A stretch of 64,000 bases of DNA from Lytechinus pictus (lineage: Eukaryota). Under the pieces are notes generated by a model. That model was not told where the DNA came from and made no database searches. It saw only the letters and a list, made by a program, of their open reading frames with translations. Below, in pieces: positions 17,841-45,264 of the stretch (its first letter is position 1; each line of letters opens with the position of its first letter). Location of the stretch: contig NC_087251.1 in the NCBI RefSeq assembly GCF_037042905.1, forward strand, positions 33,978,001-34,042,000, written 5' to 3'. Position numbers and translations under genes: made by a program.

Positions 17841-19249
17841 CAGATAAAGAGATATGGGCATGAAAGGTGGACGGACATCAACTGACCAGTGAGGCCTCGT
17901 TTGCTTTTTTTTTTACGAATTATTTTCTTGTGCAATATTTTAACATAAAGGCGAGACAGAAATACCTGTCCATGGCTACATCATTCACTCAATTTACCAA
18001 TCTAATTTCACCCTCCCACAGCAACACCAAAAAGCCACATTCAACAATTCCCTACAAATATTCATGGTCAACCCCCGTTATACATTCAGGACTTTTCTGA
18101 AAGGGTTTACTATAGAGTTGGTAGACTTTCAAATCGATTTAAATTCCTAACTCATTAGGGGGTGGATATAATTAATAAAGGTTTGGATCTTTCCGAAAGG
18201 TGCATCTAAAATTATTCACCAAACTGCACAAATCCTCTATTTCAACACACCAAACTGTACACAAATTCCAAAAAATTATCCGCAATGTCATTCAGACGGG
18301 TGAAACAGACTCTAAATTGGTCATTTCCAAATAGAACATCCAAATACAAGCTCAAACACTATCACACCCACATTACAGAAGGTAAGAGAGGCAGGGTATT
18401 ATGTCGTCATATGCATAGTACATCATCCTACTTCTTTCAACTTCGATAAACATGAGCCACTTCCAATGCTACACCAAAATGAATACAAGTTCATCACAAT
18501 TCAGGCACATAACCAAGTCGCATCACACACATTCATCATTGCCATTATACATGTCAAAAGTCCAATCTTTGTCACGAAAGCACTTTTTACCATCACTCTC
18601 ATCCGAACACAAAGACATCGGAATAAAATAAACAAAAGCTAAGCATATTCCTGTTTCATTTCTTTTATTATGTTAAGTGTAATGCCACAAGTGGCTTCCG
18701 ATACAGCAAAATTACAAACAGGATTTTTTTTTTTTCAGTTTCATTTCAATTTTTTTTTTTTTTTGTCAAATGAAAATATTTCAAGGGACTAACAATGTCA
18801 AATATGGGGACAAAGGGGGAACCGTTTGACTGCCAAATAGCTGCATCCCGACAGTGAAAAAACCTGGGAAAACCCTTACTTTGGGGACAAAAGCCAGGAA
18901 AAACCGCCAAGATGCAGCGTACAGCCAACTAGTTTTAAAAAACATAAAGGTTCAAATAGATAAATAAAAGATTTGAACAGAGAAAAGTAAAGCTGATCGT
19001 AGTACAGAGTAAGGAGTCAGATCAGAAAAAATATGCTAGTAGCAATTGGTTAAAAAAATGTTCAACATGAACAGACCAAGTTGCAACATGAAGCAGTAAA
19101 AACTTTTTTTTTTTAAATCTCAAATAAAATTTAAATACGTAACCAGTATCCACTGGATGCCTTTAGGGCAATTACAATAGAGAGAAAACGGTAAAATAAG
19201 GAAAACTAAGTCACAAACTTTGACAGTCGCAATATCGTAAATAAGGACT

Positions 19250-22200
19250 AACAGTCCAGAGGATTGAAGAATGCATCAGAAATTTTCCAACATTAAATCA
19301 AGTAAGTGTATACGGAACAAATGAATTAGATTTGAGAATTTGATTATCAAGAACATTGACATTAATAACAATTAACCAGGTGACTATTTGGCTTTTCCAT
19401 ACAATATTTGTTTTGGGTTATTACAATTCTTAAATTTCTTGGATTTTTTATTCGCACTGCAAAAAGGAGTGACAAATGTTAAACTTTTGAATATGGAACA
19501 GCAAATTACAATATATCATGAACAATATCAAGTAAAAGAATCCCAATTCATCTTTGCTTTATCGCCTGGCAAAATAAATGTTTCTCCTTGTTCGACTTTC
19601 CATAAATATTCAAAAACTTTTTTTGTAATATATGTATTTTGTGTTACTCTCATAGCTAATTTCCACTCCCCCTTTCACTCGTTCTTGAATTGAACATATT
19701 TTTTTGTGTCCCAACATATTTTCATTTTGAATATGCATGTACACCTAACAATTACTGGACACTCAGTATAAGATGTTTCAAAGACAATTTGTAACTGAAC
19801 TTTATAAAAGTCTTGAATTCTAAGTCAAATATACATTATATATAGAAAACTATCAATACATTCTAATAAATACTCACAATTTAAATATTTCGTATTTTTT
19901 TAGATGAAGATACTAAATATAATTTTTAGTCCCTGTATTAAACTAGGAGTAAAGATCAATTGTATACATGAAATAAACAATTATTTTAATTTGTATTTGA
20001 CATCAGTTTACCAAAAGCTCAAAAAAACATTTTAAACTTTGTTAATGCATTGGTTTTTTTTTCAAAATGAAGATGCATAACAATATTTTGTATTTCTATC
20101 CAACTAAATTCTAATGTAAAATGTCCCAAGGACTTGTAACAATATATTTTTTTTCCCTTTTCCAACAATAAATCAAGTGTATACGATACCGAACAAAATT
20201 AAGATTTTCATGAATCAGACATTTTACTATTGAACTGATTTGGCATTATCAAGAACATTGATATTAATGACAATTAACCAAGTGCCTATTTGGCTAGTTC
20301 TGCAATTCAAAACAATATTTGTTTTTGTCTATTACAATTATTGAAATAATCTGATTTTCAATTGCACTGCAGAAATAAATGACAAATTTTTAACTTTTGA
20401 ATAATGAACAGCAAATAATCTATCATGGACAATTTCTAATTAGAAATTAAATTCCTTTGCTTTATCACCTGGCAAAATAAACATTTCTACTTGTGTTCAA
20501 CTATGCAATTTATATTATTTTTAAATATATGTATTTTGTTTTACTCACAAAGCTAATTTATCTTTTTTCACTCATTCTTGACGGACGTCTGTGTTCCAAC
20601 AGATTTTTATTTTAAATATAAATGTACACCTGGATACCCGTTTTACATTATGATTTGCTAATCAAGATTAGATCACTTGTATAAAATTAGTTTCAAAGAC
20701 GATTTGTAACATGAACTTTATAAGTCAGGTTTTGAAAAAAAGAAATTTAACCAAATGTAAGGAAATAGCACAATTTTTTACGTGTCACTTTAGATGACAA
20801 AAACGGGTGGAAAAAACCTAATGTCTACACTAAATTTCCAAAATATTAGCTTTTAATCTTCAACTTGATGAAAGTATTGGGCATGTAATAAGTAATCTGA
20901 ATTCAAGTCAAATATACATTTCAAATAGAAAACTATCTTCTATACATTCTCATAAAGAATAATCACAATTTAAATATTTCACATTTTTCGGGATGAAGAT
21001 GATATTATTAGTCTCTGTATTAAACTATGAGTAATCATTTCAGTATTATCTTGAATGGAAATTTGTATCTGAAGGTTAGCTGTATACATGAAATAAAATC
21101 GTTTTTAATTTGCCGAGTAGAAAAAAATGCTTGTAACCCAATTTGTATTTGACATCAGTTTACCAAAAAGGCCACAAATTTTTTAATACTTTATTAATGC
21201 ATTTTCTTTTTTTCAAAATGAAGATGCATAACAATATTTTGTATTTCTATCAAACTGAATTCCAATGTAAAATGTCCCAAGGACTTGTAACAATACATTT
21301 TTTTTCCTTTTCCAACAATAAATCAAGTAAGTGAATACCGACATTTTACTATTAAACTTTTTACTTTTGAACAGATTATGCATGATCAAGAACATTGACA
21401 TTAATGACAATCAACCAAGTGCCTATTTGGCTTTTCCATACATAGGATGAAGTACAGTTGAACTTAATGCAGTTCAGTTAAAATAAAATGTTTTTCATCA
21501 TTTCTTGTTCTGCAATTAAAAAAAAATATTTGTTTTTGTTTATTACAATTATTGAAATTATTGGATTTTTCAATTGCCCTGCAGAAACGAGCGACAAATT
21601 TGACTTTTGAATAACGAACAGCAAATACCAATGTATCATGAACAATTTCAAGTTAGAAATTAAATTCCTCTTTGCTTTATCACCTGGCAAAATAAATATT
21701 TCTACTTGTTCAACTATGCAGTTTATATTAAAAAACTTTATTTTTAAATATATGTATTTTGTTTTACTCACAGAGCTAATTTCTTTTTTTTTCCCACTCA
21801 TTCTTGAAGAACGTTTTTGTGTTCCAACAAATTTTTATTTTGAATATACATGTACACCTAACGATTACTGGATTCCTGTTTTCAATTATAATGATTTGCT
21901 AATCAAGATTAGATCACTTGTATAAGACTTGTTTCAAAGACAATTTGTAACATGAACAGGTTTCGAAAACAGAAACGATTCAATCAAATGTAAGGAAATT
22001 GCAAGATTTATAACCATCTGTGACATATTACTCTAAAAAAGAAAATATAACCATTTGCAGAGTATTAAGTTACTTTGTTTCACTATGATTTCCAATACTT
22101 TAGAAATGTGTACCCATCTGGCTTGGAAACGGGGAAAATAACTTTTCCATATTCAAATAAATCAATGTCACTATAAGCTTTAATAAGCTTTGTCGGCTTT

Positions 22201-23900
22201 TCAAAATTTCAAATATTTAAGACAATTTGATTTAAATTTATTTACATTTTATACAACAAAAGAACTGTTCACACTTTTTCCACACAAAGTAGTTTTTGGC
22301 TGGTTGGTTTTGATAAGATACAAAGTAAGTTCCACATTTTAATCTACATTAAACTCACACTTTGTAACTAGAGCGTTTTCCTACATAACCAAAAAAGAAA
22401 TTAAATCTAAATTTCAAATGATAGGCTTTTGTCTTTTCAAGGTTTTAACATTTTTTTTCCACATTAGAAGCTTGTGATTTGATTTTTCTGTTATTTCTTT
22501 TCATCTTGAAACATAGACACATTGAACATTTGGAATAACATACCTTCCAACAAAATAATAACTTCCAGAAAGATTTTTTTCTTTCATAATACTGCAATAA
22601 TAGTTACATTTATATAGCCCATAATACTAGATGTTTCTAGGGGCTTTTAGACCGTTAACATCTTTCTCAATTCTGAAATTTGTTGGTGTTTTTATTTCTT
22701 TACAATAAACACTTTTCCATACCAATTAAAAAATTTACCTTTTTTTAATTCAGATTCATACTAATTCAATTCAGATTCATACTAACAAAAGAATCAACCT
22801 CAACAGTTTCTACAAGCTTCAGTGACCAAAAACAGTTTTTACTACAAAGAGACATTCTCATGGAGTTTTTTTTTTTCTTCAATTTTTATGGTAATCTGAA
22901 TTAACAGGGTTTCCCCCTTGTCAATTAAATGTTAAAAATTGCAATAATTTTGCAAACTAGAGAGAATATGGAAATATCCTTTGTTAAAGTTTCGAGGCTT
23001 AAAAATGGGGGAGGGGGGAATTAAATTTCTTAACCTAATTTCCAAAATTTTATTATTTTCTAAATGCTAGCTTTTCATCTATAACTGAATGAAAACAAGT
23101 ATTGGGCCATAATAAACCTGAATTTGAAATGAAATGTTTGACTCACTCATATTACTCGACAATAACATTTCAAATAGAAAACTACTTCTATACATTCTTA
23201 TAAAGAATACTCACTATTTGAATATGTTGCATTTTTCGAAATGAAGATGCTTAACATTATTTTGAGCCTCTGAATTAAATAGGAGTAATCGTTTCAGCAA
23301 CATCTTGAATGGAAAATTGTTTATGCAGGTAAGTTGTTTGATGTTTTTTTATCCTCGTAATTTGTCTAGTTGAAAAAAAAAATACTTGTAACCCAATTTG
23401 TATATGACATCAGTTTACCAAAGCCAACTTTTCTTTTTACTTTATAAATGCATTCTTGTACTAGTAATTTTATAACATTTTGTGTTTTTGAAGATGCATA
23501 ATACCTGTATTTTGTGTTTGTATCAATCTGGGGTAAGTTTCAGCAATCTTTAAACAGAAAATGTATTCCTTAAATTTTCGAAGACCTACTTAAAATGCAA
23601 AAATTTACTGTTTCTATGTGGTCTAGTAAAAAAAATTGCTTGCAACTACTATTTCTACGATTTACAAAAATGTGAATTCTTTTTACTTATGATAAAATTC
23701 TATATCAAATTCCTTGCAAATAAATCACTGCTCACAAATGAAATGACTTCAATACATTCTTATAAAGAATACTCACAAATGTTAAGTTCACATTCAAGAT
23801 GAAGTACAATTTTTTTATTCTGTTCTTTGAATCAAAGAGAAATGATTTTAAAGAGAAATAATCTTGAAAATCGCAAACCGAAAATCCTTTTTATATTGAA
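19250..23900. repeat. Diverged ~0.9-1.2 kb tandem duplications (AT-rich, coding-like on -)
   Basis: Markers CCTGGCAAAATAAA at 19565/20468/21683 and CATCAGTTTACCAAA at 20001/21153/23408. Confidence 0.85.
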
Positions 23901-24405
23901 GTCTATTCATTTTTTTAAATATAAATATATATCTCGTCTCTTTTGTACAACTGTATCCAAATATTATAAGAGCTGAAATGAAATAGCTTGCAACCAAAAT
24001 TGTATATGATGACATAACCCTAAGAAACATTTTAGAAGGGGACTAATTTTCAATTTTGAAAGAAAAGTGCATATGACAGTTAGCAATTAGGATATATATT
24101 TTTTCAAATCTTTTTAAAGTTTGCAGATGTGTTCAGTGATCAAAGAAATCATTTTGAAGGTGACTTTCTAATTTTTGTAAGTTGGGCCATATTTTTTTGT
24201 TTCAGCCTTTCAGGTACTGAAATGAGAGATATATCATATTCTATGCGAATAAAAACGAGCACACAAGATCAGAGCATGACATAGATGCTAGTTAGCCAAT
24301 ACATTGGTCAAAAGCAATCATGTTAATCCATATAAAAGGCAATTTGATAAAAATTTACAATATTTTGCTGTAATCTCTATTGCAAGATATGTTGCTACTA
24401 CCCAA

Positions 24406-24955
24406 TCCTGGAAACCACCATTTTCCCCTGGAAACCCACTGCAACCCTGGACACCGCCAGTGCTCCCTGGTAACCATCCATACAATCCTGGACACTGCCG
24501 CTTGACCCTAGAAATCATGCCACCCTTGAAACCGCCACAAGACCCTGGACATCGTCGCCGCTCCCTGGACACCAACGCTGCTCCCTGGAAACCGCCGTCA
24601 CTGCTCCCTGGACACCACCACTGATCCCTGGAACCACCGCCACTGGAAACCGCCGCTGCTCCCTGGACACCATCGCTGCACCCTAGAAACCACCGCCACC
24701 GCTCCCTGGACAACACTGCTACACCCTGGACACCGCCACTGCTCCCTGGACACCATCGCTGCACCCTAGAAAACACCGCCACTGGACCCCGCCGCTGCTT
24801 CCTGGACACCATCGCTGCACCCTGGAAACCACCGCCACTGGACCCTGCCGCTGCTTCCTGGAAACCGCCGCCATTGATCCCACGACACCATCAGACCCTG
24901 GAAACTATCGCCAGACCCTGGACACTAAGAACCGCCAAGACTCCCTGGAAACCAG
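24406..24955. repeat. ~20-nt GC-rich minisatellite (consensus ~CCTGGACACCGCCGCTGCTC), roughly 25-30 units
   Basis: CCTGGA(A/C)AC recurs every ~16-23 nt. Confidence 0.9.
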
Positions 24956-27900
24956 ACCCCTTCAGTTCCCACCGTCCCAGACCGATGAAGATTTTGGACC
25001 CCGGATGTTCCCTCCTTCCCAGGAATAGTTCCCTCAGACTCACAGAGAGTTGACCCTAGTGGCTGTGGAAACCTAGACCTTGGACACCCCTCCCTCAGCT
25101 AGGTGGTAGTAGTGAGAACTTAACCCTAGGGTGAGCTAGTGTAGTCCCTCTTGGCACTTGCTTTCACTGACATCTCCCTCTACAGCTCAACAAGCTGGCA
25201 TGGTCAACGCAATTCTCTCTCTTCCCCCGTCAGCTCTCGTCACCTAAACAGGCTTCTTACACCAGTGTAGCACTCTATTATTGGGTTGGTATGAACCAAT
25301 GCTTGGATATGTTTGCACTGTATGGGCAAAAAAAGGTTTCTATGCACAGAGAAAACATGCACATACAACTCTTGATACTTTAAACCACTTCAACTTACAT
25401 CACCTGTAGCTTGATAGCTTCCTCCCTCACTCAAAGACTATGTGAAAAACCTGTTACAGCAAACGGACAGCAGCTTACAGCCAATTACAGATCAACCAGT
25501 CATAACATCATGGAGAAATCTCATGCACCACTGGAACTGATACAGGTTCAGATTGATAGAGCTTTTTCCCTCCAGAGAAGGTATACATTCTAATACAGAA
25601 ACAATACTGAACAAGGGGGAAAAAAGCCTTTTTTCGAAATATACATATGTGCCAGACAAATAAACTTTCCAAAAGATCACTAAAAAAAGAACGGTCTTCC
25701 AAATTTTTTTACACATTTTCAAAAATGTAAATATTTAGTGTGAACATTAATAGTTAAAACCACACAATTTGTAACATTTTTTCTTTGTGAATTTTCTTTG
25801 ACAGGTACAAAGCTTACAGTTTCTGTGCATTGCGTTGCAGGACAGAGTGAAGCAGACCATGTTCAGGATTAGGGTAGGCTTTGCTCTTCATCTACAGAAA
25901 ATTCCACAAATCAGGCATACCAAGACCAGTCAACACCATTCTCCATCATGAAGCACTCCTTGACAGCACAATCTCTCCAATAACATAAATGCTGCTTAGC
26001 AAATAGAAACATTCGAGGGGGAAAAAAGGGAGATACACATTCCAGTTAAAAAAAATAAGCCCCAGCGCATGGGCCGATTGTAACCTTGTGATCAACCTCA
26101 ACGAGGAGCATTTTTTCTTCTATCAGTGCTCAAAACTTAAATAGTGCTTTTTTACTAAAATGGTTTAGCTTAGTTGATTAATAAAGATAACAGCAGATTC
26201 AACACAACAATTAAATACAATGTTCAAATATAATGAAAAAGAAAATAAAATGGAATCAAGACCACAAATACCATTTCAGGTGAGATGTGTCTCGCGGTGC
26301 GCCACTGATATGAAGGATGTTGTCTTTGTCAGATACAAGCAGTAATGGAGGTGTCTTACGAATATCAAACAAGCGTGATGGTAGAATAGGTTGCATGATG
26401 GGTAAACCCTGCTAGTATGTCAGAAAAAAAAGGAAAGAAAAAAAAACATCCCTGCCCCAAAACATTAACCTACTAGTAAAATATAATTCATGACCAAACA
26501 GCAAATGCCATAAACCAAACAAGAATGTAAAGATGTTAAATCAATTGAAAATGAGATGTCGTACACATGAATTCGCTTTGGGTTATATTTTGAAGTAATA
26601 TTGTAACTACGCTACAACAGTTACTAATACAGCAATTCAGGATTAACAAACTGATGATCAAACTATTAATTATATAATCACAGAAAGCAAACAGAGTAGA
26701 TTTAAATTATATTAATTTACCAGATTGAAATACCATACCAGGTTATCAAAAACGGCAATATGGGAATAGAATGAAGATGATTGGCAGATACATGTAGCTT
26801 GGTAATCGTGGAACACTTGCATGGGTGCAAAAGGTATAAAGGCATCTATTTCTAGCAGAAACAAAGACTGAGATAGAGAAGATATTAAACCCTACATGGG
26901 GTCAACCCCCAAGTTTGTTAAATGGTGCATTACATGAAGTATATTTCTTAAATTAACTTGGAAAATAATAAAAAACCCTAAATGCAATAACTTTCATGCA
27001 TGGATCTTTACAAGTCACAGTAATTTGCACATAGCAGAGTGCACATAAAGGGGTTATAAATTATTAAATTTCAACACAAATAACTTCCCCCATTCTGTAA
27101 ATGCTAAATCATTTAGTCTCGAGTAGAAAATTCTTATATATTAAAACAGAAATGTTATAGAAGCATCATGAAGCACTTATGCAAATTTTATTTCGAGAAC
27201 ACGCAACTCTCTCTATGAATTTGTTTTTCATGCCATTTTTAACTTCATAACACTATAACTCTAACACCATACAGATATTCCCTTGATACAAATTATCTCA
27301 TACCAGTTCAAGAAACTTTACAAATATTGATTACATCACATTTGTTATGGCGCCACAAACGCAGTCTCAGCATCCCTGAGCTCAGAAAAACAGTCAAGTA
27401 CAATAGTCTGATTAGCCAAGATGATGCATCCTTGGAAAATCTATGTGTATGAAAAGAAAAGGAAAACCCATCCCTCCCTCACAAGCTTGTGTCTATAACT
27501 CTAGGTCAAACATTTTGTAAAATGTGTTATAGAATGTTAAAGAAAAATAAAACTCAAAATACAGTGATGAATGCCCAATGGCAAGACAATTTTTTTTTCC
27601 TTTTAAGTATTACATATACTTTCATTGTGCACAAATGATTTTTTTTTAATGTATTAAACACAAAGTTAAAACAGACGTCACCTTCGACAGTCACTTAATC
27701 TGTTACTTCACTGCAGAACAGTTCATTACAATGATGGGTTGCAAACAAAGTTGGCATCAGGACAAGCACCTGACCGCAAAGAATAGAAAGAGAAAAAGAA
27801 CACTTTGCCCACCCTAAACCCAACAAAATCTTAAATCATACTTCTTTTTGTAAGTGGATATTTTTTATTTTCTACATACACATTCAAATGTATTTTTTAC

Positions 27901-30900
27901 ACGATCAACAAAACTAATGCTGGATTCATGAAAAGAAATGCACACCCCAAACCCAGCAGCACTACTCTGAGATTCATTCAAATTGTAAGTGGATTGTCTG
28001 CTTTTGCTTATTTTTTTTTCATTTGGCAGTAAGGATCAATGAGATAATGCACAAAAGTTGGTCATTCATGGAAAAGAAAAAATACCATAGTACATTAATT
28101 AAAACCTTTCACATGGATGGGTGAAGCTTTCTTGGGGCGCTATGATGGCACAGGTGGAAGATGCCTTCTTGGGCCGGAACTTGTTCTATACAAGAGTGAT
28201 GGAATATTCACCTTTACCCAAAAGGAACACTAAAGCATGTGCGCAGAGAAAAAGACAGGAGGAAAAACAAAAACACATGTTGACAGCCAAAATGGCTGCA
28301 TGCAAAGCCCCACAAAACATAATTCAAGTTCATGTATATCAAGGAAGTCCTAAAGTTGTGAAGCAAATGATATTCATGTTAAGATAATATTTTTTTCTTC
28401 ATATCTCTACTTCTTTTAAATCATGTAGAACCGTTATTTTTACCAATATTAATGCACATTACAAATCTATTCACTCGCGAAAAAAAAAGATTCTGCTCAA
28501 AATGAAATCCAATATCATGTAAGATTTAAGTTTTTACTTTTGCAAATGTATATTTATATATATATTTTTGGGGGTGTACCTTTTCAGAAAAAAAAATCAA
28601 ATGGGAAAATATGAAATGGTTACACTTATTGCTGGTTACCACTGTCATCTAAGCGAAGCTTGAATTCCCTTTGGCATAATGAAGTGCACTTGGTAAATCC
28701 TGTATCACATAATTGAGAACAGACGAAAATGGGGGGAAAGCAAAGCTCAATGTTAAACATGCCCACCCCACCCCCTCAATTTTAATTGAATGGAAAAAAA
28801 AAATTGATGTATAAATGGGTGTCCTGTATTTACCAATGTTATTAAATTAATGCATTACAACATACATGAGGTAGATGGGTACATAATTTTTTTTTTCATT
28901 CCTCACACTGCATCAGGCATTTAAGTACAATTAGCAATTTGTTGATTGTGAAAGATTTATAGAAACAATTGGATTATGATCATTACAACAGTTGCAACAA
29001 TACCGCTACATGGTGTTTCGCAAAGTGCCAGCCGATTAATGTCAAGCAAGAGTACATGGGTTGCCGACTTTGAAATGGTTGGTAATGAAGCACATAAGTG
29101 GCGTAGCAACATGCTTGCTTGGTTTATGTTCCTGCATGAATACCGAGAGGAGAGAAAACATGCTGCCTTTCGACAGAAAAAAATGCAGTTTTCTACATCT
29201 ACATAAAATACACAAAAATGCTCACTTATGTGAACAAGTTTATCTTGCACTAACAGTGCTTTCTTTTCTCGTATCATCAAGTACATGGAAACTCAAAATA
29301 CTTCTTTTTTTTCAACAAAGATTCCTTTTTCAAAGACTTGCTTGTGATAACAAGACAAGCGATTACATATGAAAATACATTTTAAAAAATTCACCAGTTG
29401 ATGGCCAACAGTCACTATCACCTTCTAAGTTGCCAATGCGAACCATACACACATGAAGACACTTGCTTTGCCACACACAATCTTGATTTTTTTTCCCCCT
29501 TCCTTTCATGATGTCAGGTAATTCCTGCATGACTTGTGGATAAACAGGAGGAAATTGGGAAAAGACTGGAGAACACATAACTGCCATAGGCAGAGTTATG
29601 ATTAACATTCATATTTAATGCTCTAGTTTTGCCAATGCCATTTCAAGTTTGTACACATGTGTAATGAACGACAGAAAGTTGCAATTCAGATTTACACTAC
29701 AATCTCATCAAGTTTGAGAGATTTAAGTTGAGAATATATTCTTCAAATAAATTATAATAAAATGTATCCTAACAAATGTTCCCATTCACAAAGACCGATT
29801 ACCAGTGAACACTTGGAAGAGAGAAGTCCATTTGCTATCACGTTCAACTCATTTAAGGAGCTAGTTCAAGAACAAAATCCACACTTAAAAATAAATCACA
29901 AGTCCCTGCAAAACAAAAGTAGAAGAGAAAAACTGCCAGAGGCAGGATCATGATAAATACCCCCCTCCCTCTTTCCATGGAAAAAAACTAGTTGCAAACT
30001 AAGGGCAAGCGCTACACAAGATTCAAGTTTTCAGAAAAGAAAGTCAGACTTTGGAAAGTTCTGTTTAAAAGGCACAAAGAGAAAGAAAAATTGATACGTA
30101 AACCCAATTAATCATGCATACAGGATGAAAACGCATCACGTACATCACCTCCGCTTTATTATTTGGTATTCTATTCCAAATGCCAGTAAATGGTTGGTAA
30201 GAAAGTCACTTGCATTCTTTGATTCCAGAGCAATCTGAATAGAAAAGGGGCTTAAGAAAAATACATGTCGACTGCCAAGCGGCAGGATCTCGCTACCCTC
30301 AAAATGCTTACTACAGTACATGAATTAATCTGGAAAAACAATTTTCACAATTATACTTTAATTGTAAAGATTTGGGAGAAAATGAGAACATTTGGATTTC
30401 ATTTTTTATCTTATCCATTATTAGTGATTTGTTTTCGGAAGCAAAAACATACAGTAACACTGGATCCAACATAGACGGATAGACTGATTAATGCTCATTT
30501 AAAATTATTTTTCTAACTAGGCTGAAGGATTGAATTTAAAAAAAATGCCCACCAAACCACTCCATCTCTGTTTCTTCAAATGGGAAGATTCCAGATCGCA
30601 AGCTGAAAAGAAGTGTGATCCTCAAAAGATCTGCATCACTTTGGTGCTTGAACAGCATTATAACCTGGATAAAAACACTATCAAAGGGGGAAAAAGGAAA
30701 GAGACTTCCCTCCCAGTCAAATATCCCCAAAATACAGATTTTTAATACAAAATATGCATTTTATATGTTTGTTTCATTGTTGTTTTTTTTGTTGCTTTTT
30801 TTTAAATATTCACAAGTGTTGTGTTGGTGTTTTTTGTTGGTTCTTTGAAATAAAACTGCTGGTTTCAGGACATTTACAGAAGATACCTTGCAAACTGCTT

Positions 30901-31129
30901 ATTTACAGATGACACTGTGGTCTTGATAAGGCCAAAGGAAGAGAAGTCACAGAAGGAACATTACTCCATAACAGGATGGCTGTACCGGGGGCTGTACATC
31001 AATTGCTTTATTTTAAGCTCCTACTGGCAAAGATTTAGGAAGAGGACAGACACGCTCCTACAAAGATCCTAAGATGAATTTTCCATCTGGTCTCGAACCT
31101 AGACTTGAGCAGGACATAGCACATATGGT

Positions 31130-33320
31130 TGTACAATAGATGCTACTGGCTTGGTGCAACATACTTCTAGATGGCAAATAAGAAAAAGGGAAAGAGAAAA
31201 ATCCCCATCCACCCACAAACACAGATTCCTTTATCTCGGACATTCCAAATACTGCAGTTTTAAATTGATTTTTCCATTGCACACGAAATCGGCAATATTC
31301 ACTTCCAATTTGATTTGATTTCAATTTGAATTTGAAGAGGACTTCCATTCCATTTTTGTTCAATAAATACAGCATTTTTTTTTCAATGAAATAAATTAGT
31401 CACTAACATTTCCACATGAAATTTTTTTTTCCAACCACACTGGGCTTCTGAACACGACACACTACTTCTTGCGGCATTTATTTGTGCTACCTTCTAGCTC
31501 TTAAGTATTGGGCATCCATGCAAACGGGCTTGAAATCTTGAGAAAACGATGCAAATCTGCTCCTTGTGGGATACTTCTGAATGGCAAACAGGAAAAGAAA
31601 AAAAAAAGAACATCCCTACCCCACATTGATCCCTGCACTTGAGAGATATTTTCCTAGTTGCTATTTTCCAAAACAGAAGTTTCACAAACATACTGATGAT
31701 TTTCTTGTAGTTTGAACAAAGTTTCACTTAATTTCTTGATTTTTCTTCTTTCACTTCATAAAAGCATTTTTGTATTTCAAATCACTAAATCACAATTGCT
31801 TTCAGATCAAATATTTCCATATATTCCTTCAACCAAACTAGGCTTCTGATCAAATCATCCATTACTATTTATGTGCTCAGTATTAGGCATCTACTGTGTG
31901 CAACAGGAAATCTTGAGAAAATGATGCAAACATCAAGAAAAATGTCCTTTCAACTAATTTAGGCTCCTGATCACATCACACATTACTTCTTACAGTATTG
32001 AACTGTGCTTCCTCCTAAGCATCGGGGCACCCTTGAGAAACTGGACTTGAAATCTTGAGAATACAAACTTGCTCCTCGTGAGGTGCTACTAAATGGCAAA
32101 CAGGAAAAGGGGAAAAAAAGAACATCCCTATCCCACATTGATCCTAGAGCTTGAGAGATATTTCATAGTTGTCATTTTCCATAACAGAAGTTGATTTTCT
32201 AATTTGAACAAAAGTTTCACTTAATTTCATTTTTCACTTCATCAAAAACATCTGAGGATTTGAAATTAAAAAATCGTAATCGATTTCAGATCAAATATTT
32301 CTTCAACAAAATTTTGGCTTCAGATCACATCATGCATTACTTCTTACTAGCATTTTACTGTACTTCCTTCTAAGCAACGGGGCATCTATGTAACACGACT
32401 TGAAATCTTGAGAATATGATGCAAACTTGCTCCTTGTGAGGTGCTTCTAGATGGCAAACACGAAATGTAGAAAAGAAAAAGAACATCCCTATCCCACATT
32501 GATCCCTGAGCTTGAGAGATATTTCATAGTTTTTATTTTCCAAAACAGAAGTTGGTCACAAACATACTGATGATTTTCTTGTAAGAACAAGTTAAATTTT
32601 TTTTCATTTTTCACTTCATCAAAAACATCTTTGGGTATTTGAAATAAAAAAATCGTAATCGCTTTCAGATCAAATATTTCCTCAACAAAATTTTCCTGTG
32701 AACAAAATTGTGGCTTCTGATCACACCATGCATTACTTCTTACTAGCATTTTACTGTGCTTCCTTCTAAGCAACGGGGCATCTATGTAACACGACTTGAA
32801 ATCTTGAGAATATGATGCAAACTCGCTCCTTGTGAGGTGCTTCTAGATGGCAAACACGAAATGTAGAAAAGAAAAAGAACAACCCTATCCCACATTGATC
32901 CCTGAGCTTGAGAGATATTTTTAAGTTGTCATTTTCCAAAACAGTAGTATAACGCAAAATACTGATCATGGTTTTGTTTAAATAAAAACTTCACAATTTT
33001 TTTTCACTTCATCAAGCATTTTTTTTATTTGAAGTCAATAATACACAATCGCTTTCAGATTAAATATTTCCACATATCCTTTCAACCAAACTGGGCTTCT
33101 GATCAAATAATGCATTACTTCTTACAGAATGTATCTGTGTTCTCTCTCCTAAGTAGTATTGGGGCATCTATGCAACAACAGGACTCAAAATCTTGAGAAT
33201 ATGATGCAAACTTGATCCTTGTGAGGTATTTCTAGATGGCAAAAACAAAAAGAAAAGGAAAACATCCCTATCCCACGTTGATCCCAGAGTTTGAGAGGTA
33301 TTTCAGTTATCATTTAAAAA
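31130..33320. repeat. Diverged ~350-400 bp tandem repeat, about 6 copies
   Basis: Marker AAATCTTGAGAA at 31533, 31908, 32050, 32403, 32799 and 33188. Confidence 0.88.
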
Positions 33321-35621
33321 AACTGATTTTCACCTTGTTCAAAACGAAAATTTAAATTCCATTTTTTTCCTCCATTTCATTCACCTTGTGCAGAAAAGAT
33401 CATCTTCACAATAAAATAGTACCACAAAAAGATAAATTGAGATTTAAGATTTAAGAAGTTTCCAATAGGAATTTCCTTGTTGAATAAGTTGATTCTCTGA
33501 AGAGATTTTGATCGAGTTTCTCCTTATGAAATAGAGCGAATATTTTTTTAATTTTCACAAGACTTTTCAATTGGTAATGGACAATGTAGAGAAAACGAAA
33601 ACCTGCACATATTTCTTGCGAAGAAAGAAGTTGAAGAAAACTGGTTCCTGATAAAAATTCCAATATGTATCATATAATTTCCTGGAGGTAAATGAAGAAA
33701 AAAAAAAAGAGAAACCGACTTCCCCACCATGTCACCATGCCCAGATGTTGGAGCGCGAGATCCAGAAGAAAAATTTCCTTTAATATCACAAAAGATTCCT
33801 AAAGAGAAAAGCATTGTAATCCGATTTTTCAGCTCCTTGTACTTGCTTGCCGAATTCCAAAAAAGCTTGCAGGTCCAGGTGTGTATTATGTTTCTGGCCT
33901 TAATTCAGGACATAGCCAATAGCTTGTAGTTGTGACTTAAATCTTGGAGCCAAGCAGAAACTCGGAAGCTCAGATGCTCCACTATTGGTGCACAAAAGAA
34001 ACGAAACAGAAAACGATGCATGCGACCCTTCACAAAGTGAAGTATGATTAGGCCTTAACAATTTTATACTTCTACACTATGATAGCACTGTTTTAGTAAT
34101 TTTATCAAGATTTTCTCATAATAAAATAGAACAGGATGTTTCAAGGTACAAAAAGTATACGCTGGGGAAAAAACACTTTACACAAGGACAAAAAAATGCA
34201 GGAATTTTCAGATTGTATAAAATAAGGGGGCCCAAACATGGCAATACCCTGTAGTAGGCTTATTTATTATACTTCCATACATGATACAATGACAAACTTC
34301 TGTGAAAGTAGAATTCTTAATTGCAGAGGATATTATCTCGATTCTATATTACAGGAATTTTGACAAGGTAGACCTACTCTTATTGTAACTATCAAACCCT
34401 TGCTGGAATTAAGCCTTGAAAGATTTAAAGGACGCTGGACTGATGCTCATTCTGTTTACAGACTGGGTCTCTCTCGCGGCTCCCTCATAACTCAATGGGA
34501 TAAGCCTAAGTACTCCTGAAACAAACAAGAAACGATGGGCCATACGGCACAAATAATAAACTTTCCAATGAAATAAATTGACCTTTTCACTATAAACTCA
34601 CCAATTTTAAACATTGATATGATTTGGAGAACCGAAAATAAGGAGAACCAGACATCCTGTTAATTAGAAAACTAAGACAATGACATCTTAGTGTTTTTTT
34701 TCTTACAAAACAGCAATTAACAAAAACATGGGCCTTTCTGGACTGCACTTAACTAATGCAAATGGGGGTTGATGAAGTTCAAATGGCACATGCTCTTATT
34801 CTTAATTTGACCCTTTTCAAGGCTTAAGGTAAAGTTTCTTGCTGAGAATACAATTTACAATACTTTTTTGTAGATCTATATATCAATCCTCTCTTTTGTC
34901 TGTTGCTAGTAGTCCATTCTTTTTTCTCTCTTGGAACTATTAACTTCTGTGTAACACTAGAATGTAACTTAACTTTCTATTCTAAAACCATGGCATAGCC
35001 ATAGACCAAGTCTACTAGGGAGTTCGGTGAAATGCCACTTTCAGAATTTTGTATCTGCAACTGTGCACCCATCATGCCCATGTAAAACAAGTATGAAGCC
35101 ATTAAAAGGAGGAAAACCCCTATAGAAACCTACATTATGAGATACTTAGAAGTTTTATGTTATGAATAAAACGATGTAGAATTCAAGAGCATACCTTGCC
35201 TCCCATAGCAACACATTGCACTTTAAAAAAAAAAGATTTGTCTTATTGCATTGCATTTAAATGTAAAATCTACTTATGCTGTAAAAAAAATCTGCATTCT
35301 CCCGCCCCTTTAAACATGAGTTGATTTAAGCCCCATTCTTTTTTCTTATTTCACAAGCTTTCCAAATTCATTGCGAATAGGATTCCTTCAACAGATTTCA
35401 GAAAAAGCCTTTTTAACACTTTTTTTGACAGAAGAAAATATGCATATTTTCCCGTGTATCTCCGTCAATATATCACTCAGACAATGAGTTGTTTGAAGCA
35501 CCATTTTCTTGTTTCACAAACTTTCCAATGGAATCAAATTTGTTGGGATTCCTTCAAGATTTCAAAGTCAGGGAACTCCCAAGTCCCTGACTAGAACTTA
35601 GAAGGGGAAAGGAAAAAACAA

Positions 35622-35742
35622 ACGGATGACTAACGTTAATTATGGTAGGAATCCTACCATAATTTAGGGTCTTATATCAAGACATCATTATCATGATTAT
35701 GCATCGATCGTCTACGAAAGTACGATATTACGTTAGTCAACC
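35622..35742. mobile_element. Small MITE-like fold-back
   Basis: GGATGACTAACGT / ACGTTAGTCAACC ends; internal hairpin ATTATGGTAGGA-A-TCCTACCATAAT. Confidence 0.45.
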
Positions 35743-37134
35743 ATCTGGGTTTTTTTTCCCCCTTACTTAGCTTAGGATCTCGGGTAGGATAAATGCTTAC
35801 CATGCTACTGCGCTTGAACTGCTTCACACGTCTTTGCAGGTCCTTCCTTCCATAAATCCAATCGTCTTCACGGTCTCCAGTTCACCCACAATTCATCCAC
35901 ATCATATCATGATCAGATTCCAACTCCATCCCGTCATCGGACTCATCCGCCACTCTCAACTGCAATTTCTACCATTTCTCACACTTCTCTAATTATAACC
36001 GACATTAATAAGACCTGCCTTAAGTTTATAACTATGACTTCGCATGATTAAAATTCCATAATTTTCGAATTCAATCGTAATATGACACAGGCATATGCCA
36101 TGCCCCAATCACCCCCCCCCCCCCTCAAAAATCACACAGACGAACAATCGAAAAGACGACCCGAAACAGACTGCGGAATTCATTTTAAGTTCAACACTAC
36201 AGAATATGGAATAACCTTACGTTACAAAACCAGCAGAGATGATAACAAACGTAACTGCCGTAACTTTAGGTGAAAATTTGAGATACAAATGAGAGAAATC
36301 GAAATTCATCTTATCAAAATATAGCCAAACAAGACAACAAGAAGACGGGCAAGACATGCAGTAGACTAAAGACAGTCATGCAATCGCCTGACGCTACAAA
36401 ATTCGCTTCGTATTTATACGAAAGCTGCCCACGCTCAACCATTTTGCACAAAATCATTCCGCGAATGACAAAATAGTTTGATCGATTCACCTCTATTATA
36501 ACGGAACATCGTAATCTAAATTTGTTTGGTATAATATATTTTTTGTTCAATATGATTTGAAATGTTCTTATTGCATTTTTATTAAAAAAACTGTCCAAAA
36601 CGTTTCCGTAAATCAGTAAAATATTACCATGCACAAAGCAACGTAAATCAGCACCATCCAGTCTGCGCAAAATAAATTTACCCGGCCTTTTCACCTCTTT
36701 TCATCAATAACAAATTTCGTTTCTATTAAAATACTCGAAATTACAAAACCTTCATATATTCATAATGATTTTTGTGATATTGTAACGACATAATATTAAC
36801 ATATGAAAAAAACATATGCATATCAATTTGTCCTGTTTTTTGTTTTTTAGATTTTCCCATTTCATTGCATATCGCGCAAAAATATTGCGTGTTATCTTGT
36901 GTGATGCGGTTTATATTGTGACGTAGTAGGTATGTCGACAGTCTGTTTATTTACGTCGATGGTACGTTTGGGCGGAATGTGGATAGCATGGGGGTACGGT
37001 GTGGGGCCGGCTATAGCTGGGGCCGGGGGTTCATCCCTGGCCCTCGATCAGGTCGGACAGGGGGGTAAGGGCCGGGGGTAAGGGCCACTGTCTCTCTGTC
37101 TGGTATGATGTTCATGTACATCATTTGGATTGGT

Positions 37135-37480
37135 TAAGTTTACCTGAAGTAAGAAGGTGCTAAATTATGAACACATTTATATATCATCAAAACGCGACTG
37201 AGCTCAAATCGTTTGTCTAGTGTTAAGACTTGTACAAATCAGCCGACGGTGTGTCGTATGTCTTGTTCAATATTATTCTTGCAGCCCTCTTCCCCCTCTT
37301 CTGAATTTTTTGCAGCTCAATTGTATGGGATTGAAATCTATTCGACCATACAGCAGAACAGTAATCAAATCTTGGCAACACTAAACTGTTATAAAGCAAC
37401 TTTATATATGATGTCAAATCTATCACAAAATCCGATTTAAGAAAAAAAAAAAAGGATAACAATTTTCATAAAAGAAAAAA
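37135..37480 (-). mobile_element. LINE (L2/CR1/Crack-like) RT C-terminal fragment
   Basis: LYNSLVLPRFDYCSAVWSN...LQKIQKR...AARIIL is the typical post-RT signature of CR1/L2-group ORF2. Confidence 0.8.
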
Positions 37481-39669
37481 AAAATCCCTCTCACTGACAG
37501 AACAATATTTGTGTCCATGCAGTTTGTGTCAGTCAACCCCCGTGAATACCTATATCGACATCCATAATTGTATTCTTGCATGCATGCAGCTTATGATTAT
37601 TATATATACTATAAATTTAGGTCAGTGTTGACTGGGCATCGAGGTAGGCCTCGCGAGTATGTATATACTTAGGAAGTTTGGGCATGTTGGGAGTAGCATT
37701 GTTAATTAGAGCTCTATATAACACTCATGGAAGCAAAAATATACTAGGCAACGTGCCAAGAGTTGTGATATTAGGAATTCAACAAAACAATCACCTCTAA
37801 CCAATCGCAATACCCCCCCCCCCTGCCGCTTGTTAATATTTTCCATAATAAGGGTCATATATATTCAAAATCAATTCAATTCTTCTTTTCAATCATTTTA
37901 AATCAATTTCTATACATCATTGACGCTACTATAGATCGAGCTTATTTTATTTCCTCAACATTTCGAAGACAAGAACGGCCACGCCGGGTACGTGCATGCG
38001 TCTTGGAAGTCTATATAGCTCAATCATCGATCGCCTCATTCAATTGATTTTAAAGGAGGTATTGAATTATGGGGGGTATATATTATGTTGTTGAAATGTC
38101 GCTCGTTCAATACTTATGTTATTTGCGAGAATTATTATTTTTAATTACATTTTCTTGCATATATTGTCCGCCCGAATATCAGATACAGATTTTCTCGATT
38201 TTCTCGATTAAAATTCCGCACGGTTTATTGCACAAGGAAATCTTTACGGTCTTTGATATATCTTCTGCGGGATCTTTTGTCCCTTTTTTTGGCCTACGCC
38301 TTGCAGACAGAGCTTATAGAATTTATTGTTTCTTCACCGGTCTCTTCATCTCACATTAAATGCACTATAGCTGCATGTATTACAGAACACTGAAAAAGTA
38401 TTCTTTTCAATTCAACTAGACAAAACAATCCCCAGGCAGCCTGTGATCGTGAGCCGTCTGACCCAAGCCACCAATCACTAGTAGCTTCCTCAAGACAATC
38501 CACCTGACCCCAAAAGCCTATCTGCATTCAACTGGTTCAAGCTTTAGGGTTGACGTGCCAACCAATCCGAATTGGTATTGAACTTGGCTACAGTCCAGAC
38601 TGAGCTGTTGCTATGCTGAATAACTACTATAGTTCTGCAGCAGAAATAGAAGAATGGGGAAAAAAAAAGAACTCATTGATGATCGATGAACTCGACCGGG
38701 AACTCGATCACCATTGTGTAGAACAAACTTTTTGGAGGGGTAATTTGGTTCTAGTATTCCCTTCCTTCGGCTGAGTTCGCATAGAAGTATGCGGTATACG
38801 GTATACAAATTTCGTTTTGCTTGCCAGTGTTGGAACTCCTCTGCCTCAGCGGGATCGAGGGTGCACCCAGTACGTACACCCCCCCCCCCCCCCTGTATGT
38901 GCCCTAATTGCCCTGCATGCTGCCGCTTTAATACGGTGGATATATCCATGGACCTACCTAGTATAGGTCCATGGATATATCCCACCGCGGGCTGATGGAG
39001 GCAGTTATCATCAGCCACAATATTATCCCTTGGACCACCCAGAAGGAAAAACCAGTAAGACCAGTAAGAATTTTTACTGGTTTCCAGTAGAATTTTACTG
39101 GTTTCCAGTATATTTTTACTGGGCCAGTTGATTTTTAACTGGACCAGTAAAAATAAACTGGAGACCAGTTCGAACAATTGCATTTCAGTTGAAGCAATTA
39201 GTAATACCAGTTAAATTGTTTTTCATCAAACTGGTGTTTCTGGTCCAATAAATGGTTTCCAGTAGATTTCTACTGGTTTCCAGTATATGTTTACTGGACC
39301 AGTTGATTTTTAACTGGACTAGTAAAAATCAACTGGAGACCAGTTCCAACAATTGCATTTCAGTTGAAGCAATTAGTAATACCAGTTAAATTGTTTTTCA
39401 TCAAACTGGTGTTTCTGGTCCAATAAATGGTTTCCAGTAGATTTTACTGGAGTTCCAGTATATGTTTACTGGACCAGTTGATTTTTAACTGGACCAGTAA
39501 AAATCAACTGGAGACCAGTTCAAACAATTGCATTCCAGTTGAAGCAAAGTAGTAATACCAGTTAAATTGTTTTTCATCAAACTGGTGTTACTGGTCCAAT
39601 AAATAATGACTTTATTTCAAGTCAGATCATTTGACGAATTATGGAAAATGAATCTTGCAATTCAGAGAA

Positions 39670-40069: not shown

Positions 40070-40946
40070 TTTAGGAAATTGACAAAGCCGATCTCCTAAT
40101 ATTTATATAAAAGTTAGGTCCTACCTTAATTCTTGCTCGCCAGAAGATAGAATGGGATCCAGCCGCTCAGAATCTCAGATAAATTGCACAAATCCGTGAA
40201 TAGAAATATATACACTTCACAATTTCAAATAGATTAGAAAAAGGGATAGATGTCACAAAATGTCTCGCGAAGTAATGAGCTCATTAAATATGCAGAGAAT
40301 ATAGACTTCGAAGGAGTGGAAGTGACGGTAAGGAATAAGATTGGAAAATGCAGAGAAATAATTAAGTATAAGTTGATCCTCCACAAGATTTGATTCAATC
40401 CTCACTAGCAGCTGGATGAGATGGTCAGCATGAGTGGACAGGACGAAGGCAGAGAGTAGAGTGATGATGTGGTAGAGAAGACAAGTTGTTTTTACCAACA
40501 TCAGAAAAGATGAGACAAAGAAATAAGCGCCAAAAAAAGGGGCAAAACAAAGTTGAAAAGAACAAAGAAGAGAGAAGCAGACTGTGAGAAAAGCAAACAT
40601 GCAAGCATCTCTGTAGTGATGTTGTATATACCTGCAAGTTCATTGCAATAAACAAGGAACAATGAAAGGATGTTTGCTCCAAGTCTAGGAACAAAAGAAA
40701 GGTTGTTTCTCAATATAAGAATGTGTTTGCCAAGTAGATTTGGGCAGGAAATGAATTGCCTTGTTCTGTGAATGTAGAGTATTGTGGTACATACACATGG
40801 CGTGAACAAGTGAGAATATATGAAATTGGAAATAAAAGAAAGAATTTATATACATATACAGAATGTAGAAATATAAATGAAAATATATACAAGGAAAGAA
40901 TATATAGATGTAGATATATATAAAGAGATATAGTCAAGTCACTACA
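40070..40946 (-). repeat. 3' LTR
   Basis: Direct repeat of 45265-46141; mismatches seen by eye at 40082, 40702 and 40705. Confidence 0.95.
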
Positions 40947-40949
40947 GTA

Positions 40950-40960
40950 GCTCCCCCCTA
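40950..40960 (-). promoter_or_regulatory. Polypurine tract
   Basis: Minus strand TAGGGGGGAGC-TAC immediately before the TGTAG LTR start. Confidence 0.85.
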
Positions 40961-41077
40961 GATTTGTACCGAATAGAAATGTAGTATCAAATCGACAAAG
41001 GAAAGTAAAAGGGAACTTGGCTATATAAAACAAGAGAATAAAAGGAGTGGAAACACTAGTGAATTTTGAGACATGTT

Positions 41078-44000: not shown

Positions 44001-44253
44001 AACCGAGATCAAGTGTGAAAGACTTTTGTCCGAAAGTCTTGATTGGTGATCGATTTACAGCCTGTAGTTGGATATTTGTCGCGTCAACCCTAGCCGGTTT
44101 TCCCAATTTTGAATGAGGGAAAATGCTCACCTCAGCACCTGTGTCGACGAGATAGCGTGTACCAGTGTACTTATCGTTGACAAAGAAAAGGCGACTGGGT
44201 TGGGTGCTGCCAAGGGGGTTAGTCGCCGCTATTCCTTGGCGGGGTCGTTTCCC
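41078..44253 (-). CDS. pol: Gypsy pol (protease-RT-RNase H-integrase), one frameshift near 41685-41690
   Basis: LVDTGA, YLDD, VDAS, HGLSH...CLEC, HIDLVGP/TTDRG/VERFH, and PPYRGPF (GPY/F) in the downstream frame 41078..41656. Confidence 0.95.
44190..44253 (-). promoter_or_regulatory. -1 programmed ribosomal frameshift signal (slippery heptamer + H-type pseudoknot)
   Basis: G_GGA_AAC in gag frame (44253-44247), 6-nt spacer, stems GCCAAGG/CCTTGGC and GGCGACT/AGTCGCC. Confidence 0.8.
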
Positions 44254-45125: not shown

Positions 45126-45245
45126 GTTGTAGAGTAAAGAAAAAAATTGAGAAGTAGAAAGGAAACAAAATAGTGAAGTGAGAAGCAAGAATAGCGAAGT
45201 GAGAGAAATGAATAAAGGGCGATAAAAGAAAATTAAGGATTCAGG

Positions 45246-45263
45246 ATCACGTCGGGGTCACCA
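45246..45263 (-). promoter_or_regulatory. Primer binding site, tRNA-Trp
   Basis: TGGTGACCCCGACGTGAT is complementary to the 3' 18 nt of metazoan tRNA-Trp (...ATCACGTCGGGGTCACCA) as recalled. Confidence 0.9.
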
Positions 45264-45264
45264 G

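Follow-up and report, generated by a model that had tools for sequence, protein, structure and literature searches.

What a row of short, GC-richer blocks, each set behind an AG and separated by AT-rich DNA, represents in a sea urchin genome is the question raised by this locus. The window, that is, the whole stretch of 64,000 nucleotides of Lytechinus pictus DNA that was analysed, had been given a sequence-only reading in which the blocks between 25140 and 29610 were taken for the spliced exons of a decayed KDZ (Kyakuja-Dileera-Zisupton) transposase gene. On its own, a KDZ relic would be nothing unusual, as sea urchins have annotated genes of this kind. The region is probably the middle of a non-coding RNA polymerase II unit of ~17.7 kb on the minus strand, producing a repeat-rich lncRNA stabilised by an ENE, and the best reading of its build, by analogy, is hsr-omega-like and PAN-like. 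The ENE would be the surprising part of the locus. The features are collected in Table 1.

Table 1. Features of the transcription unit and of the KDZ-like blocks, in window positions
Feature	Positions	Strand	Remark
TATA-like box	36411..36418	-	~27 nt upstream of initiator-like TCAG at 36391; putative promoter
Exon 1	35801..36391	-	5' end approximate; short ORFs only
Intron, GT...AG, 1285 nt	34516..35800	-	the one intron with splicing evidence among the joints listed
~22 units: (often G-run) + pyrimidine tract + YAG + GC-richer block + AT-rich spacer	25250..34515	-	
Young tandem array, five to six copies, ~390-nt unit	31135..33340	-	
CxC-like block	29004..29198	-	best single KDZ-like match; 20.6 bits, tied with reversed-sequence control
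RYSCRNINQ	29145-29119	-	
LCETPCS	29025-29005	-	
GIFxxCHH block	28106..28229	-	alternative CRH place
DANF block	27682..27769	-	p 0.36 and 0.18
DANF	27758-27747	-	
FQG...RH block	27304..27440	-	p 0.41 and 0.52
FQG	27437-27429	-	
WRH	27355-27347	-	
YHHAC...H-x3-H block	26272..26408	-	
LFYHHAC	26389-26369	-	
H-x3-H	ends 26285	-	
DGE block	25818..25991	-	18.4 bits, rank 3 over 256 kb (real and reversed DNA)
HDGE	25950-25939	-	
DWSW	25931-25920	-	
G-rich minisatellite, 20-23-nt unit	24405..24956	-	
Degenerate AT-rich repeat (27% GC), unit ~0.9-1.2 kb	19283..23848	-	
ENE-like element, 79 nt	18840..18918	-	predicted fold
Genomic A15 and A12 tracts	18724..18764	-	75 nt 3' of ENE-like element
AATAAA	18664..18669	-	candidate poly(A) signal

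Transcription of the minus strand

The minus strand is transcribed over the blocks and over the spacers between them, and a long ORF is absent. The unit extends from ~36,390 to 18,640, with stranded RNA reads over both the blocks and the supposed introns. First mates of run X21 on the plus strand, which usually mean minus-strand RNA, have depths of 0.7-3.1 vs 0-0.03 on the minus strand in seven bins across 25104-29751; of the 26 bins between 18464 and 35727, 25 contain such mates. The reading strand is the same for the intron, the TATA box, the AATAAA and the ENE-like element. X1 contigs have a depth of ~305 at 22802-24667, 30848-32193 and 33624-34516 and of 160-220 in between. Outside the unit, depth falls to 0-0.03 in the 5' flanking bin (36392-37055) and to 0 in the 3' flanking bin (17800-18463) in all four runs. 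Contigs of X9, a run from a second organism, also lie over the unit, spacers included; X9 is the mapped one of at least 12 runs from 5 studies in this organism that contain 13-14% of the words. The library kind of X1 is unspecified, and X9 was taken as RNA by guess.

We infer a single continuous transcript, as well as ENE activity and nuclear retention. No contig or read spans the whole unit, and depth is nil over 18464-19791 in X1 (the ENE-like element included) and over 26432-27759 in X9, holes that are not proof of absence. Expression is modest in the raw reads (~1.3 and 0.4 RPKM), unlike that of the abundant PAN or MALAT1. The bin holding exon 1 (35728-36391) has contig depths of 121 in X9 and 173 in X1 and raw-read depths of 0-0.1 in X21 and X22. 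The first ORF of exon 1, at 36379, is 21 codons long and hydrophobic. The longest ATG ORF, with 164 aa, is inside the range of 50 shuffles (107 +/- 25, max 194), and Pfam in six frames over 25.0-30.4, 18.0-25.1 and 30.3-37.8 kb gave nothing at cut-off.

An ENE-like hairpin near the 3' end

As modelled, the hairpin near the 3' end of the unit has the anatomy of an ENE. Above a 15-bp lower stem, U5 (18903-18899) faces U6 plus a CA bulge in an internal loop flanked by G-C stems; next come a 5-bp G-C-rich upper stem and a second loop, U4/U4, weakly capped by 3 bp. This anatomy fits the ENE descriptions in the available portions of PMC13541005 and PMC7583470. The predicted energy is -39.5 kcal/mol (z -3.5; 1 of 200 shuffles), with the lowest z among the unit's 60 lowest-energy windows tested. 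A scan with a pattern whose thresholds were fixed after the element was seen gave this hairpin as the sole match in 128 kb and no match in 40 shuffled windows. The element sits ~170 nt upstream of the AATAAA, in whose bin coverage ends; the 3' end is approximate. In the bin that ends at 19010, X9 covers ~370 nt; among the differences listed (at least 621 more exist), none falls inside the element and five nearby ones lie outside it, at 18943-18976. Further homologues of the element were sought and none was found. Neither a snoRNA host nor a tRNA-like 3' element was supported by Rfam (4 weak rows under the gathering score, no match) or by an ARAGORN tRNA search (0).

According to the portions of PMC7583470 available, ENEs are known from RNAs of viruses, from MALAT1/MEN-beta and from transposons in plants, fungi, slime mould and stickleback. 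A literature search at title and abstract level returned no report of an ENE in an invertebrate cellular lncRNA, sea urchin included, and the primary survey (PMC4864102) may list one. The KSHV PAN ENE, as described in parts of PMC13541005 and PMC7583470, is likewise ~79 nt; short stems enclose its U-rich internal loop, G-C pairs border that loop, and the element lies close to the 3' end of a non-coding RNA, upstream of a poly(A) signal. The urchin RNA differs in being cellular, 16x longer, with one intron and low in raw reads, and its triplex is predicted. The double ENE found in transposons of plants and fungi, such as rice TWIFB1, also has two U-rich loops with a short duplex between them (here U5/U6, U4/U4 and 5 bp), and the urchin locus is possibly of transposon background. 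Unlike the double ENE, the urchin element has an upper loop closed by 3 bp only, a lower bulge of 2 nt rather than 3-4 and no identified adenosine triad, and its host is an animal non-coding RNA. MALAT1 and NEAT1_2 (MEN-beta) are, like the urchin RNA, long and non-coding with hardly any splicing, and have a U-rich loop towards the 3' end that is followed by A tracts in the genome; in the urchin, however, the U tracts are without C/G interruption, the A tracts are 75 nt off, searches for a tRNA-like element found none, an AATAAA follows, and no sequence homology was seen.

In the proposed mechanism, the RNA would be cleaved after the AATAAA at 18,669, and the poly(A) tail of the RNA, or else the A tracts encoded in the genome, would fold back into the U5/U6 loop of 18,918-18,840 as a U.A-U triple helix. 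This helix would block deadenylation and preserve the nearly intron-less RNA in the nucleus. More speculatively, the pyrimidine tracts and repeat arrays might bind many splicing factors or hnRNPs, as architectural RNAs do; of the features of that class, the repeat-rich, unspliced build alone was seen. If real, the element would allow triple-helix protection of a non-vertebrate cellular RNA to be tested directly in a tractable embryo, and it would offer a possible path from transposon RNA to nuclear lncRNA.

Descent of the blocks

The exon-like blocks look like remnants of an older multi-exon gene of unsettled identity. A tentative proposal, less likely than not and compatible with the ENE-stabilised lncRNA, is that this gene was a long-decayed Kyakuja (KDZ) transposase gene of which the RNA is a transcribed remnant, in which case the ENE may be the transposon's; ENEs are found downstream of transposase genes, for example rice TWIFB1 (portions of PMC13541005), and Kyakuja-type genes are present in Lytechinus and other echinoderms. 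All of the KDZ-like motifs named earlier on the minus strand were found in the order given, spread over three frames, and a regex composed after the motifs were known had 0 matches in 100 shuffled windows. Run without guidance, a spliced aligner put the Kyakuja CxC segment at 29197-29004, and the CxC-like block has p 0.013 vs 150 shuffles. From the second H of H-x3-H to the D of DGE there are 57 nt across GT 26271 / AG 25992, equal to the 19 residues of the profile, and this intron-like pair is within 2 nt of an intron common to all 12 animal-type loci aligned. The joined blocks also beat base shuffles (0-2/150) and column-shuffled profiles (0-1/30).

The order of the blocks, which had been the argument for KDZ descent, is insignificant, as permuted orders equal the real score in 60 and 70 of 200 and in 8 to 47 of 150 trials. 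The frameshift-aware search proposed as a check scores above base shuffles, but not above block-order permutations. No KDZ match came from the proposed homology searches: tblastn with 167 Kyakuja-type proteins had a best E of 0.12 in the unit, HMMER with 44- and 79-protein profiles a best E of 2-3 elsewhere than the blocks, and Pfam on 28 block frames no KDZ or CxC row. These protein and profile searches used the Kyakuja type only, and for Dileera and Zisupton just the Pfam scans bear. KDZ descent stays borderline.

Only 2 of the 12 profile segments are best at the places first proposed, and the CRH segment fits 28165-28142 better than 27355, where it would precede DANF. The best score, 2.0 bits, is equalled by 4 of 252 control tiles, and the blocks had been chosen for their KDZ look. 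The frameshift-aware scores match those of a true KDZ gene decayed 40-45%; a subfamily member decayed by 30% would score ~100, vs 41 observed, and the decay of at least 40% that is needed sits badly with the sharp splice-like signals. In controls, 10-12 of 46 tiles and 17 of 92 gave spliced alignments just as good, and the aligner's paths shift with settings. When the acceptors were fixed, 3-5 of 25 column shuffles scored as high and three of the acceptors were off their AG; when Kyakuja intron positions were supplied, the chain was not above controls. Compared with animal Kyakuja genes (e.g. P0001 and P0042; loci L005-L075), short exons, motif order, and one intron position with the spacing near DGE agree, whereas a significant profile match, an open frame and termini are missing, and middle-block borders are different or unplaced. 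After the CQ| intron, whose position fits within 2 nt, the next donor is ~9 nt early. Kyakuja termini are CA..TG with a 7-bp duplication, and Zisupton has inverted repeats with an 8-bp duplication (PMC12730594, portions available). At the ends of the unit, neither a terminal inverted repeat nor a flanking duplication was found, the longest exact inverted match being 11 nt without duplication; ends lacking inverted repeats would become visible only through paralogues.

Further searches concerned the same blocks. In the ESM Atlas, two blocks gave a best value of 0.78, to clusters without names. A homologue search with the CxC-like block returned 0 of 10 candidates, and three motif scans of viral contigs 0 matches. 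With ORFs of 120 motif-bearing loci, tblastn gave 8 matches in 18-38 kb, none in the blocks.

Splicing and acceptor-like sites

The earlier description of higher-GC blocks behind an AG holds: at 21 of 25 sites, the first 110 nt past the AG have a higher GC content than the sequence lying 150-260 nt downstream, and acceptor-like tracts precede the blocks. The pattern extends past the region first described, with ~22 sites from 34.5 to 25.3 kb at a spacing of mostly 300-590 nt. Acceptor-like sites number 2.30 per kb on the minus strand and 0.84 on the plus strand in 24,950-34,515, and 0.69 elsewhere. Enrichment was absent for GTRAG (15 vs 13) and for U1 sites. The G-run/pyrimidine units fold no better than shuffles (mean z -0.06), and hiding of the pyrimidine tracts by pairing with the G-runs was rejected on this ground.

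The blocks had also been described as spliced, which the contigs do not confirm for the present. The ~22 units appear unspliced in the dominant RNA, as X1 contigs, which lose rare variants, run unbroken through the blocks (24851-27902 and 28936-30781). Splicing probably removes the intron after exon 1 and leaves the other ~22 acceptor-like sites mostly unused. The intron joint (34514/35800, CT..AC) has a depth of 213 in X9 and 144 in X1, with a short side of 28 letters and a likeness of 80; raw reads are without any joint. An ordinary multi-exon lncRNA or non-KDZ pseudogene, with coverage from nascent pre-RNA, a spliced form in other tissues and an idle hairpin, is an unlikely explanation. The ~3x enrichment of acceptor-like sites on the sense strand would suit it, as would the low raw-read depth, the visibility of introns in rRNA-depleted libraries and the existence of at least 14 joints beyond those listed. 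Against it, X1 contigs at depths of 160-306 traverse ~17 acceptor-like sites without a break while one terminates exactly at the used acceptor, 34516, and the hairpin was found in none of 40 shuffles.

Repeat arrays

The unit carries three repeat arrays, and its contig depth (160-430, with flanks at zero), together with the unspecified kind of X1, would also suit a ~17.7-kb multi-copy non-autonomous transposon, X1 and X9 then being low-coverage DNA that yields contigs for repeats alone, with read-through as the source of the RNA reads. ENEs are common in transposon RNAs. This account is quite improbable given the precise GT-AG joint, the X9 depth of 2.2 inside the intron and the absence of detected termini. 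In X21, all reads differ from the window at several sites (e.g. 11/11 at 33736 and 7/7 at 32077), which resembles alleles of one locus. Precursors of piRNAs are long, little-spliced RNAs that are cut into small RNAs, and a single-strand precursor from decayed repeats would match the one strand, one early intron, repeat-rich build and modest steady-state level, yet it is hardly probable, as Pfam and tblastn show no recognisable transposon fragments and a stabilising 3' element is a poor fit.

The proposed ENE-stabilised lncRNA resembles Drosophila hsr-omega, as described in portions of bioRxiv 10.1101/695486 and PMC7151548, in its two exons, early intron, short ORF and long tandem repeats. It differs in having three dissimilar degenerate arrays vs one 280-nt array and an ENE-like element, and in contrast to hsr-omega, no motif common to the old units in many copies was found. 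Descent of all blocks from a single old repeat was unsupported: outside the young array, mean pairwise z is 0.07, and 2 of 187 pairs have z above 3. A recurrence at 31.2 and 26.4 kb is limited to the G-run/pyrimidine part.

The most far-reaching version of the lncRNA reading, unlikely as a whole, would be an invertebrate deuterostome counterpart of NEAT1 and hsr-omega: a 16-kb nuclear scaffold RNA under the protection of an ENE of PAN or double type. This RNA would have arisen from a defunct KDZ transposase gene, its ~22 unused 3' splice sites would serve as a multivalent splicing-factor decoy, and its array would still be growing via duplication of an exon-intron unit. Each ~390-nt unit of the young array has one acceptor-like tract and a GTAAG.

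Transcription of the unit

The minus-strand blocks at 25140-29610, taken in a sequence-only reading for a heavily decayed, spliced Kyakuja-Dileera-Zisupton (KDZ) transposase, lie within a proposed non-coding transcription unit (about 36,390 to 18,640). A sea urchin RNA that is long, rich in repeats and mostly unspliced, and that carries a 3' element resembling an ENE (a hairpin whose U-rich internal loop protects poly(A)), is better supported than KDZ ancestry.

Four of 23 sequencing runs were aligned to 17,800-37,700 at likeness 80. In 25 of the 26 bins between 18,464 and 35,727, raw stranded reads of run X21 are present and their first mates map to the plus strand, which in most stranded libraries means minus-strand RNA. 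Over 25140-29610, their depth is 0.7-3.1, versus 0-0.03 on the opposite strand. Raw reads of run X22 are consistent with this, being shallower and gapped; converted, depth is about 1.3 and 0.4 RPKM. Flanking depth in all four runs is 0 at 17,800-18,463 and 0-0.03 at 36,392-37,055, and a TATA-like box (36,418) and TCAG (36,391) coincide with the 5' coverage edge. Blocks and spacers alike are transcribed from the minus strand.

Contigs of runs X1 and X9 (the latter from a second organism) connect 34,514 to 35,800, a GT-AG intron on the minus strand; the short side of the joint has 28 letters and X9 depth inside the intron drops to 2.2. This single early intron is likely removed. Raw reads hardly cover exon 1 and show no joint among those listed. 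Contigs of X1, a run of unspecified kind that may be the assembly's own source, are continuous and free of differences over 24,851-27,902, 28,936-30,781 and 30,848-32,193 among the joints and differences listed (14 joints and 621 differences lie beyond these); therefore, the AT-rich stretches previously read as spliced introns are retained in the dominant RNA form. Contigs of X9, presumed to be RNA, match spacers as well as blocks; over 24,852-26,044, for example, they differ by 53 letters and 34 gaps. As coverage has holes (X1 over the 3' 1.3 kb, X9 over 26.4-27.8 kb), the joint is thin and the kind of X1 and X9 is uncertain, one continuous transcript is what we infer. Reads at short interspersed repeats in the unit (22596-22639, 35012-35106, 35340-35566) come from both strands and have loose ends.

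Intron 1 holds, at 35602-35764, inverted arms of 35 nt that enclose a near-perfect 27-nt palindrome (35638-35664), followed by a second strong hairpin (z -3.8 and -3.5). The predicted spliced length is about 16.5 kb. The unit has no coding frame: no ORF is longer than chance, and Pfam and Rfam gave no family at cut-off.

Features of the unit and its surroundings (window positions)
Feature	Position	Strand	Remark
329-aa frame	246-1235	+	
PSME4 (proteasome activator subunit 4) exons	2474-8467	+	
AATAAA	18,669	-	candidate poly(A) signal
A15 and A12 tracts			75 nt downstream of hairpin
ENE-like hairpin	18,918-18,840	-	near 3' edge of unit
AT-rich repeats	19.3-23.8 kb		about 1.1 kb
G-rich minisatellite	24.4-24.96 kb		
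Tandem array	31.1-33.3 kb		~390-nt tract-block-spacer unit, five to six copies
Unused acceptor-like units	after intron	-	
21-codon hydrophobic ORF	36379-36314	-	opened by first ATG of exon 1

The ENE-like 3' element

The hairpin at the 3' edge is non-random and ENE-shaped. Above its 15-bp basal stem, five U face six U plus a CA bulge in an internal loop; the next stem, of 5 bp with four G-C pairs, carries a second U4/U4 loop under a weak cap. The hairpin folds with z -3.5. Opposed U tracts between G-C-rich stems, defined by thresholds chosen after the element was seen, occur at this site only in 128 kb and in 0 of 40 shuffled windows. The X9 contig in the 3' bin spans about 18,640-19,010 by depth arithmetic, stopping just beyond AATAAA, and the poly(A) site likely lies downstream of 18,664.

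In the available portions of PMC13541005, PMC7583470 and PMC12501189, ENEs are described as holding the poly(A) tail in U.A-U triples and stabilising intron-poor nuclear RNAs, and the hairpin has the build given there. In contrast to MALAT1, it is without a tRNA-like element and interrupted U tracts. No invertebrate cellular ENE was found by title or abstract opening in the literature searched; tables of the primary ENE survey may bear on novelty.

By analogy with known ENEs, a poly(A) triplex at the loop could protect the RNA and might keep it persisting in the nucleus. More speculatively, pyrimidine-tract proteins or hnRNPs may bind it multivalently, as suggested by comparison with hsr-omega (bioRxiv 10.1101/695486) and PNCTR (PMC7151548), both as far as the available text goes. 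Like exon 1 with its 21-codon frame, hsr-omega has a short ORF, which is translated. Pairing of G-runs with pyrimidine tracts and enrichment of U1 sites were tested and are unsupported.

KDZ ancestry of the blocks

As an observation, the sequence-only reading was partly confirmed. Its motifs were found in place, spread over three frames (a post hoc regular expression of them matched 0 of 100 shuffled windows), and its GC-richer blocks are indeed preceded by pyrimidine tracts ending in YAG. Such acceptor-like sites number 22 on the minus versus 8 on the plus strand over 24,950-34,515, and therefore the pattern reaches well past 25140-29610. Older blocks showed no detectable likeness when compared with one another.

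Motif scanning of metagenome contigs, which yielded 120 loci, and two protein searches supplied the KDZ references; these are of Kyakuja type, without Dileera and Zisupton types, and include Lytechinus, Patiria and Apostichopus proteins. One, P0001, bears PF18803, PF18802 and PF18758. The KDZ motifs are also seen in the profile consensus. Most of 12 aligned animal-type Kyakuja loci share intron positions and phases (profile coordinates 174, 290, 347, 393, 430, 458 and 519).

Direct searches gave no KDZ or CxC match, either with Pfam (six frames and single blocks) or with 44- and 79-protein Kyakuja-type profiles (six frames), and the best tblastn E value inside the unit with 167 Kyakuja-type proteins was 0.12. 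A custom-built spliced, frameshift-aware aligner placed the CxC segment unguided on 29197-29004. Spliced scores were matched by control tiles (10-12 of 46 and 17 of 92). In segment scans of 128 kb real and 128 kb reversed DNA, the CxC block ranked joint first and the DGE block third; 10 of 12 segments scored best away from the proposed places, and the CRH segment fitted 28.1 kb, upstream of DANF. The distance from H-x3-H to DGE across GT 26271/AG 25992 is 57 nt (profile spacing, 19 residues), and this pair falls within 2 nt of an intron present in 12 of 12 aligned relatives.

The blocks do stand out from shuffles: base shuffles scored as high as joined-block chains in 0 of 200 and, in a second test, 0-2 of 150 cases, and column-shuffled profiles equalled the real Forward score in 0-1 of 30. 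Collinear order, on which the claim had leaned, adds little, since permuted block orders equalled the real one in 60 and 70 of 200 cases, in 7 to 99 of 100 when seven proteins were each used singly, and in 8 to 47 of 150 in a further test. The reversed 44-protein profile scored 40.4 versus 41.1 for the real one. With the real 44-protein profile, six of 26 blocks had p < 0.05, and best positions were out of order. Nominal p values near 0.01-0.02 are suggestive only, because the blocks were picked for their KDZ-like look. The best Forward score, 2.0 bits, was attained by 4 of 252 tiles; for family members near the profile, it is typical of a true gene with 40-45% of bases mutated, and in the chain test, true genes at 30% mutation reach about 100. 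KDZ-type termini (PMC12730594, in its available part) were sought at the unit ends and none were found; the available parts of PMC12062965 and PMC7798263 held nothing decisive. The balance tilts against KDZ ancestry, and descent of the blocks from a KDZ gene is doubtful.

Neighbourhood of the unit

The unit is directed toward the 3' end of PSME4, about 10 kb off. Sequence identity of one PSME4 exon is 89% with Strongylocentrotus purpuratus and 78% with Diadema, which marks the host as a sea urchin. Between PSME4 and the 3' end of the RNA sits a purine-rich minisatellite (14946-17716), which is strongly GC-skewed and has periods of 33-176 nt nested within one another. The 329-aa frame resembles a Penelope-type element in its reverse-transcriptase end and GIY-YIG nuclease. 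Upstream of the putative promoter, 37223-37465 (minus strand) is taken to be a C-terminal fragment of a LINE reverse transcriptase; RNA reads there come mostly from the opposite strand. Long gag-like and pol-like ORFs on the minus strand with near-identical terminal repeats (~40250-46170) form what we take to be a Gypsy-type LTR element, which seemingly splits a repeat whose CCAGT-rich units lie at 39.06-39.96 kb on one side and 46.25-46.55 kb on the other.
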